A stretch of DNA of 43,509 nt from a virus (IMGVR_UViG_2703718810_000003), one strand, 5' to 3'. Shown: positions 35,301 to 36,047, counted from the stretch's first letter. A program made the numbers and translations. Notes: generated by a model not told the origin, from the sequence alone.

Positions 35301-36047
35301 TTACTTCACAACCCTCATATTGCTGACATTTGGACGCCAGCTATCCCAGTTAAACGTCACCCATCGACCACCGTTCATGGTCATGCGGTCCATAATCCTC
35401 TCACCAAGAAGCGTACTCATTGCGGCATGATTCAGGTTTGTTAACATCCCGACACTGCACAGTGATGCTGTCCGGCGATCAATTATCTGGTGCAATACCA
35501 CCTGCTCGTTTTTCGTCTCCCGCTGGACGCCTATTTCATCCAGGACCAGCAAATCAACCCCGCAAAGCTCCTGTAAAAATTTTTCCCCGGATTTGCCGTT
35601 GTCGTAGCTGTCATGCAACACGCTCATGACGTCAGACACGGTGACGATAATCACGCTGCGCCCCTTCACCATCAGCCGGTTGCCCATCGCCGCTGCAAGG
35701 TGATTTTTCCCGGTGCCGGTTTTACCGCTGAACACAAAATTCGTGCACCCGGTCATCAGTTCGTCAGCTATGGATTTGGCCTAGCTCAGCGCGTATTTTT
35801 GCCCGTCGTTCTGCACCTGATAATTTGCAAACGAGCATTTGCTGTGCAGAGGCTGGATGCCCGAACGATTCAGGATTTTTTCCACCCGCAACTGGCGATT
35901 CTGGCAGTTAATCTCCTCGCTGCGTTTTCGTCCTTCAGCAAGTTGCCATTCCCGCCACTCCTCCACCGTCCGGTACGGTGGAACCGCCCCCAGTGGTGCA
36001 AGTCTGCGAATACATTCAAGAACCCCAACTGCCGCAATGTTTTTCAT
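35301..36047 (-). pseudogene. DnaC-like helicase loader interrupted by an in-frame amber (TAG) codon at 35783..35781
   Basis: N-part ...RSGIQPLHSKCSFANYQVQNDGQKYALS then TAG then in frame AKSIADELMTGCTNFVFSGKTGTGKNHLAAA...LDEIGVQ...; collinear with E. coli DnaC where the stop replaces the Lys of NALSKARQ. Confidence 0.75.

Follow-up and report, generated by a model that had tools for sequence, protein, structure and literature searches.

A prophage DnaC-type helicase-loader gene of Escherichia coli broken by a single amber codon, most likely through deamination at a Dcm site

The stretch of DNA analysed here, subsequently called the window (43,509 nucleotides, one strand, from the virus IMGVR_UViG_2703718810_000003), harbours on its minus strand a Rac-like early operon composed of a YdaS/cro-like gene, a YdaT-like gene, a replication initiator gene, a gene for a helicase loader of the DnaC type and a DUF1627 gene. 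The components of this operon and the relevant parts of the loader gene, with positions counted from the first letter of the window, are the following:

37788..37761, minus strand: promoter-like site from a promoter scan, just upstream of the YdaS/cro-like gene
37735..37454, minus strand: YdaS-like (cro-type) gene that heads the early rightward operon, with a weak Pfam YdaS_toxin match
37470..37045, minus strand: YdaT-like gene (Pfam YdaT_toxin, E 2.8e-10)
36054..37037, minus strand: replication initiator gene, directly upstream of the loader gene in the same operon (Pfam HTH_36, E 2.4e-6, and a weak DnaD_N match)
36598..36687, no strand assigned: six 15-bp iteron-like units TCAACNNTTGAYGGG, imperfect palindromes read from the sequence, inside the initiator gene
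35301..36047, minus strand: prophage pseudogene of a DnaC-type (AAA+, IstB/DnaC family) helicase loader, 248 codons plus a terminal TAA
36047..35784, with the stop extending to 35781, minus strand: N-terminal ORF of 88 codons, which covers the DnaB-binding region and half of the pre-P-loop helix
35780..35784, minus strand: CTAGG, derived from the Dcm site CCAGG by mutation of its inner cytosine, now the T at 35783
35756..35301, minus strand: C-terminal ORF of 151 codons from the internal ATG (M98, MTGCT...), with Walker A and Walker B
35726..35703, minus strand: Walker A motif GKTGTGKN, residues 108-115
35552..35535, minus strand: Walker B motif LLVLDE, residues 166-171
34563..35279, minus strand: DUF1627 gene, directly downstream of the loader gene and interrupted by an amber codon (PGAP 'internal stop')

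The region 36047..35301 is a single DnaC-type loader gene broken by an in-frame TAG. This codon, located at 35783..35781 and corresponding to codon 89, is the single interruption of the loader frame and is read in the same frame as both ORFs (minus strand around the stop: GCG CTG AGC TAG GCC AAA TCC ATA GCT GAC GAA CTG ATG ACC). As the read-through product, translated with Gln at codon 89, fits the family profile end to end (NCBIfam NF009043 (PRK12377), positions 1-248 of 248, 497 bits with a cut-off of 389), the two ORFs represent one gene and no chance juxtaposition. Furthermore, the read-through product is matched by Pfam PF01695 (IstB_IS21; 66 bits, cut-off 24) and by E. coli DnaC (PDB 6qel; E 1.7e-72, 47.7% identity over 235 columns), with the 88-codon N-terminal ORF aligning to DnaC residues 7-86, and the Walker A and Walker B motifs of the loader are invariant or nearly so across 20 homologues. 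The initial annotation had described a DnaC-like loader split by a single in-frame amber codon, which is borne out by the family profile and the DnaC match; equally, the internal ATG that it had pointed out (MTGCT...) is present, and the stop lies upstream of all ATPase motifs.

With 291 bits the loader stays below the cut-off of the DnaC equivalog profile (NCBIfam NF005931, 357 bits) and is therefore assigned to the phage paralogues of DnaC, as distinct from the host gene; its place is in the prophage and not in the dnaT-dnaC locus. The NF009043 (PRK12377) group of prophage DnaC paralogues presumably includes YdaV of the Rac prophage. A working member of the family would combine N-terminal domain and ATPase in one uninterrupted polypeptide, a continuity that the TAG at codon 89 removes, and because of this codon the locus is filed as a pseudogene of the family and not as a working member. 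In agreement with the earlier reading of a split loader, RefSeq (PGAP) calls the identical allele a pseudogene ('ATP-binding protein, internal stop'); as such, the nonsense allele is already annotated. E. coli DnaC (PDB 6qel/6qem) has the same length and the same arrangement of domains, in which the AAA+ domain comes after an N-terminal DnaB-binding region, and the motifs GK(T/P)GTGKN and LLV(L/I)DE are common to DnaC and the NF009043 group. Unlike these proteins, the window loader is stopped at codon 89 and carries the substitutions R12C, Q19L and R48C.

The genetic context of the loader has precedents. In the host dnaT-dnaC operon the loader equally follows a gene of the initiator/primosome type. 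A DnaC-type loader in place of lambda P is a known lambdoid variant, with the lambdoid prophages Sp4, Sp10 and Sp12 of strain Sakai possessing the same module of an origin-containing initiator gene and a subsequent DnaC-type loader gene (PMC2669165). The Stx phages POCJ13, 75/02 and phiSTEC1589 have loader genes with 80-82% DNA identity that are, like those of the Sakai prophages, annotated as intact, in contrast to the amber-bearing window gene. Upstream of the loader, the initiator gene is annotated as intact in relatives. The iteron-like units in its interior are followed by TAAAAAACTG on the gene strand, and a repeat search of the iteron region reports four overlapping 30-nt copies with a spacing of 15, 15 and 30 nt. 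By analogy with lambda, where the origin lies inside gene O, the units at 36598-36687 probably constitute the putative origin of the prophage. The last 21 residues of the initiator (window 36054-36120, minus strand) show a weak match to the C-terminus of DnaT (E 0.0045); a DnaT-like C-terminus would echo the host dnaT-dnaC gene pair. In a comparison with the homologous loci L003 and L004 over 35250-36700, the middle and 3' part of the initiator gene (approximately 36240-36510) is far more diverged than the loader gene, and, since the latter is 99.3% identical to the FDAARGOS_1290 allele, a mosaic joint is placed inside the initiator gene.

The ancestral state of the interrupted codon can be read from the nearest intact alleles. 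SCU-106, which differs from the window loader gene by two bases, and FDAARGOS_1290 and 4/1-1, which differ by five and six bases, have CAG (Gln) as codon 89. Among 106 full-length homologues (72-98% identity) residue 89 is Gln in all except one, which has His, and the aligned residue of E. coli DnaC is Lys (K87). The initial annotation had assumed that a conserved Lys codon was converted from AAG to TAG by one transition. Both elements have to be corrected: Lys occurs only in E. coli DnaC, and AAG to TAG would be a transversion. As the ancestral codon is CAG, the change is a C>T transition.

In the ancestral sequence AGC-CAG-GCC, gene positions 264-268 read CCAGG, and it is the inner C at position 265 that is mutated, as visible in the site sequence of the window (GAGCTAGGCC) next to that of SCU-106, L003 and L004 (GAGCCAGGCC). 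The site thus shows the configuration of the hotspot, an ancestral CCWGG with the inner C changed to T. Two CCWGG sites are present in the loader gene, and deamination on either strand yields a stop at the codon-89 site only; in total, 80 single-base routes to a stop are possible within the gene, 24 of which are transitions. The amber codon most likely arose by deamination of 5-methylcytosine at the Dcm site, and from this sequence context we infer that the mutation was dependent on Dcm, the gene of which is carried by most E. coli. The same in-frame CAG to TAG change within CCAGG to CTAGG is known from the Dcm amber hotspots of lacI (Coulondre, Miller, Farabaugh and Gilbert 1978), where, according to a later summary, the spontaneous hotspot is explained by 5-methylcytosine deamination (Coulondre et al. 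1978, summarised in PMC12606429), and it is the CCAGG to CTAGG lesion that is countered by very-short-patch repair (PMC2715241). Unlike the laboratory collection of lacI mutants, the loader amber is a fixed natural polymorphism in a prophage gene. CTAGG ambers in lambda cI have been used to define very-short-patch repair. The loader amber might be valued as a clean natural example of this textbook hotspot.

The initial annotation had allowed for a sequencing or assembly error, in which case the gene would be intact, and a single-base change is the smallest such error imaginable. Such an error is, however, exceedingly improbable and was rejected for the allele, as the base is common to many independent assemblies. 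Among the matches listed, six complete genomes (S19-651, STEC17-183, STEC2018-607, LZSFT34, JNEC-KY179 and JNEC-KY208) match all 747 bases of the window gene, the TAG included (100% identity), and JNEC-KY203 and JNEC-KY177 possess the same TAG together with other differences, which amounts to at least eight complete E. coli genomes from independent laboratories and platforms; complete genomes with the identical allele originate from Switzerland, Japan and China. The exact 88-amino-acid product was found on 222 contigs (large protein collection; NCBI, ENA, Logan) and a variant with one different residue on 64 further contigs. In addition, a further derived base, at 35526, goes together with the TAG.

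A homologue of the loader gene is present in approximately 1,400 of 5,426 complete genomes, 670 of them being at least 99% identical to the window allele. In each of the ten loci that were fetched, the amber allele resides in the same lambdoid prophage adjoining ompW/yciC. The amber serves to mark one family of prophages integrated next to ompW. A second homologous place was seen in five of the eight listed genomes with the loader gene (seven amber carriers and SCU-106).

The history of the allele was followed in a SNP table of the 17 kb early region, which covers the window, four complete genomes and ten draft loci. Apart from SCU-106, every copy has the amber codon. KY203 and KY177 are a basal pair in which codon 48 is still the ancestral CGC and DUF1627 is uninterrupted, while the remaining amber copies share R48C and the second amber codon in DUF1627. 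Since the basal pair already has the loader amber, R48C arose after it, and for the same reason the DUF1627 amber, a TAG at 34706..34704 (codon 192) derived from TCG (Ser) by a C>A transversion, is later than the loader amber. SCU-106 (locus L019) is nested in the derived amber group and nevertheless has CAG, whereas in L012, a sister copy of identical flank haplotype, the TAG is retained. Only two differences from the window, at 35783 and 35526 and thus 258 bp apart, are found in the loader gene of SCU-106, and at either position SCU-106 has the base of the common intact allele. Repair by recombination with an intact homologue is therefore the best reading of the intact SCU-106 gene, two independent point changes being a less economical alternative; SCU-106 as the ancestor of the amber allele was rejected on the basis of the SNP table and of the TAG in L012.

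On the protein level, translation would end after 88 residues and before the P-loop, such that the cell would get at most an N-terminal fragment without the ATPase. Restart at M98 would perhaps give a trace product without the DnaB-binding domain, and natural misreading of UAG would add a little full-length protein. To judge from the sequence, the prophage's own loader would be effectively lost. It had been considered initially that the C-terminal ATPase fragment might still be made from the internal ATG; a working fragment is unlikely, as it has no Shine-Dalgarno sequence and no N-terminal domain and is affected by a 4-bp duplication in KY177. A broader proposal, namely that the 88-amino-acid N-terminal (DnaB-binding) fragment, the 151-amino-acid M98 ATPase fragment or both have been kept as domesticated proteins, could draw on the fact that most copies retain the two ORFs undamaged and some pipelines annotate them as genes, that the allele is common and that reinitiation a few codons past a nonsense codon is known in E. 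coli from the lacI restarts. Several observations make such a functional split highly improbable. Upstream of the internal ATG at 35756 (M98), the window sequence has no Shine-Dalgarno-like sequence. The stop falls into the helix that leads into strand 1 and the P-loop: an AlphaFold model of an intact homologue, poor (pLDDT 49) and used for its secondary structure only, places a helix at residues 81-97 and a strand at residues 103-107, and the AAA+ domain of an M98 product would on this low-confidence model lack the helix before strand 1. Three substitutions of the N-terminal fragment, R12C, Q19L and R48C, affect positions with Arg in 103, Gln in 79 and Arg in 98 of the 106 homologues, respectively, R48C being later than the stop. 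In KY177, a tandem duplication of GACG (4 bp) after window position 35634 causes a frameshift in the ATPase part, which also has a Tyr>His change, and SCU-106 has gone back to the fused form. As KY177 carries this further duplication in the ATPase part, neither fragment looks selected.

Equally, the initial annotation had made the inactivity of the replication module conditional on the lack of an amber suppressor. The loader would be functional upon efficient read-through of UAG, be it by an amber suppressor tRNA of host or phage or by programmed read-through. Gln is the residue inserted at UAG by supE-type suppressors and by near-cognate tRNA-Gln, and low-level natural misreading by tRNA-Gln would restore the wild-type Gln. 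With Gln as the ancestral residue, a suppressor that inserts Gln would give back a protein identical to the wild type; further points in favour are that both adjacent genes have TAG and not TAA or TGA, that the allele has persisted and apparently spread, and that supE-type glnV alleles exist. An exact-match search for glnV with a CUA anticodon gave 155 records, 40 of which are listed and are almost all K-12 laboratory derivatives (C600, DH5alpha, J53, MG1655), and a literature search on amber suppressors in natural isolates gave nothing useful. Among the tRNAs of the window, only a tRNA-Arg(TCG) and a tRNA with a CAT anticodon (Met/Ile) occur; a suppressor tRNA with a CUA anticodon was not found in the window, and a suppressor in the element itself was thus discarded. 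A check for supE- and supF-type suppressors in the host, as suggested initially, was run in S19-651, a proxy host with the same allele, in which the tRNA-Gln and tRNA-Tyr clusters were located by synteny and only glnU/W/V/X and tyrT/V were checked. The four tRNA-Gln genes have the anticodons UUG, UUG, CUG and CUG, tyrT/V have GUA, all being wild type, and prfA is annotated as an ordinary CDS. Furthermore, the stop is not conserved, with Gln in 105 of the 106 homologues and the TAG limited to one prophage clade; gene decay has proceeded in KY177; and the two ambers differ in origin, a C>T change at a Dcm site as opposed to a C>A transversion, as well as in time. Rescue of the loader by a suppressor or by efficient read-through is, in sum, very unlikely.

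What the loss of the loader meant for the prophage is a separate matter. The amber carriers belong to the serotypes O91:H14 (KY179, KY208), OgN4:H18 (KY177) and O48:H45 (KY203) and to ST2144 (LZSFT34) (PMC13534694, PMC10667442). In a comparison that covers one flank, the ompW side, and three host backgrounds, the host DNA beyond ompW (13-23 kb) of S19-651, KY177 and KY203 differs by 0.8-1.6%, whereas the early regions of their prophages differ by only 0.19-0.31%; divergence of the early region with the amber is lower than that of the flanking host DNA by a factor of 3 to 7, and SNP density steps from 2-5 to 10-18 per kb within approximately 150 bp of the integrase end. The much lower divergence of the early region suggests that it spread after the mutation had arisen. 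Such a pattern would result if close phage relatives that already possessed the amber had entered hosts separated at an earlier time, and the amber would then not have prevented transmission. Recombination confined to prophage DNA could, on the other hand, mimic this pattern.

Persistence and spread of the allele would imply that the phage can do without its loader, that host DnaC or another prophage complements the loss, or that the amber is sufficiently leaky; for transmission without the loader, other prophages may mobilise the element, as in O157. In one version of this scenario DnaB would be loaded at the phage origin by the host DnaC (48% identical) or by a DnaC-type loader that a co-resident prophage supplies, which would make the amber neutral and leave the element transmissible. 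This explanation fits a loader pseudogene and disputes only the consequence for the prophage. It gains from the divergence, which in three serotypes is 3 to 7 times below that of host DNA and changes abruptly at the attachment site, from the full length of the tail, head, terminase, lysis, integrase and excisionase genes in the window, from the second homologous place in five of the eight listed genomes and from the complementation between prophages documented in O157 (PMC2669165). It loses from the decay of sister copies, among which the portal gene is hit by IS600 and the genes for tape measure, integrase and DUF968 are frameshifted, and from the prophage-limited recombination that could give the same divergence pattern, and we regard it as unlikely, albeit worth serious consideration. 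Also rather doubtful is the proposition that the amber did not kill the element and that the phage kept lysogenising new lineages at ompW (O91:H14, O48:H45, OgN4:H18, ST2144). If the element did spread as a phage after the mutation, the initial verdict of an inactive replication module would not be fully right; phage DnaC-type loaders would be accessory for replication from such an origin, and host DnaC, a helper prophage or low-level misreading of UAG as Gln would suffice. A real spread would bear on the need for phage-encoded DnaC-type loaders.

Taken together, the preferred reading, which we hold to be quite probable, is that a DnaC-type loader of a prophage was inactivated by one nonsense mutation through Dcm deamination and that the allele persisted thereafter. 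In a first step, the inner C of a methylated CCAGG with the CAG of codon 89 would have been deaminated, giving CTAGG and the TAG; the amber would then have inactivated the loader of a Rac-like/lambdoid prophage integrated next to ompW. The allele is old enough to be shared among prophage copies of several E. coli serotypes, at least one copy has decayed further, and one copy appears to have been repaired by recombination with an intact allele. Although found in several unrelated E. coli lineages, the split loader is an ordinary prophage pseudogene. Lambdoid prophages of STEC with point lesions in single functions are known to persist, to recombine and to move with help (Asadulghani et al. 2009, PMC2669165); compared with this pool of defective prophages, the spread of the window element is deduced from divergence patterns only.

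The suggestion of a defective or domesticated prophage in the initial annotation holds in part. In its favour are, besides the loader, the amber in DUF1627 and the lesions of sister copies, which comprise an IS600 in the portal gene of S19-651 and KY208 and frameshifts in the tape measure gene of S19-651, in the integrase gene of KY203 and in DUF968 and ead of KY177. Against it, structural, integration and lysis genes of the window are otherwise of full length: all tail, head, terminase and HNH proteins of an intact relative align over their full length, and the integrase, excisionase and lysis genes are open. Equally against it, the amber-bearing early region is found in hosts with much more diverged flanks, so that the allele would not have stopped the spread. 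With respect to a cryptic prophage, the window shows the loader and DUF1627 ambers and a split portal gene, the last of which may be a natural form, the other late genes being of full length.

The portal region (9975-12235, minus strand) consists of an ORF of 454 amino acids with a complete Pfam portal domain and an ORF of 299 amino acids, which overlap in ATGA. The split occurs at a G5 run (approximately 10886-10890), where P15-385 has G6; the portal of a relative is one ORF of 807 amino acids with one more G and one more 54-amino-acid repeat unit. On the portal gene, Tandem Repeats Finder found no repeats and BLAST detected repeats offset by 162 bp. The G5 form is common to five genomes, including those with late regions that are only 92-98% identical, and, from these sequence features, two separate genes may be the natural state of this region, as opposed to the outcome of a frameshift lesion. 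A portal frameshift as proof of a defective prophage was dropped in light of the G5 form in diverged copies and the ATGA stop-start overlap.

Further observations concern the gene content. The window is without the ompC-like gene that relatives have between the tail genes L and M. From the Q antiterminator to the lysis genes (22835-27063) the layout is that of Stx phages, with a methyltransferase gene, two tRNA genes (tRNA-Arg(TCG) and the CAT-anticodon tRNA, at 25011-25172) and a nanS-p-type esterase gene; judged by ORF size only and without an stx search, no ORF of the size of the Stx A-subunit was seen between the tRNAs and the esterase. An ibrA/ibrB-like pair (PAPS-reductase-like and IbrB-like) is located in the early region on the opposite strand (29611-31466, plus strand), and in complete relatives (loci L028 and L029, beyond gpJ) a YadA/Eib-like adhesin and an S6 autotransporter peptidase are encoded beside the tail-fibre genes, outside the window. 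Prophages of the ompW-integrated family may be those that bring ibrAB and adhesins of the Eib type into O91:H14 and related STEC. Cargo of this kind, the ibrA/ibrB-like pair, the adhesin and the peptidase, could explain the retention of the prophage.
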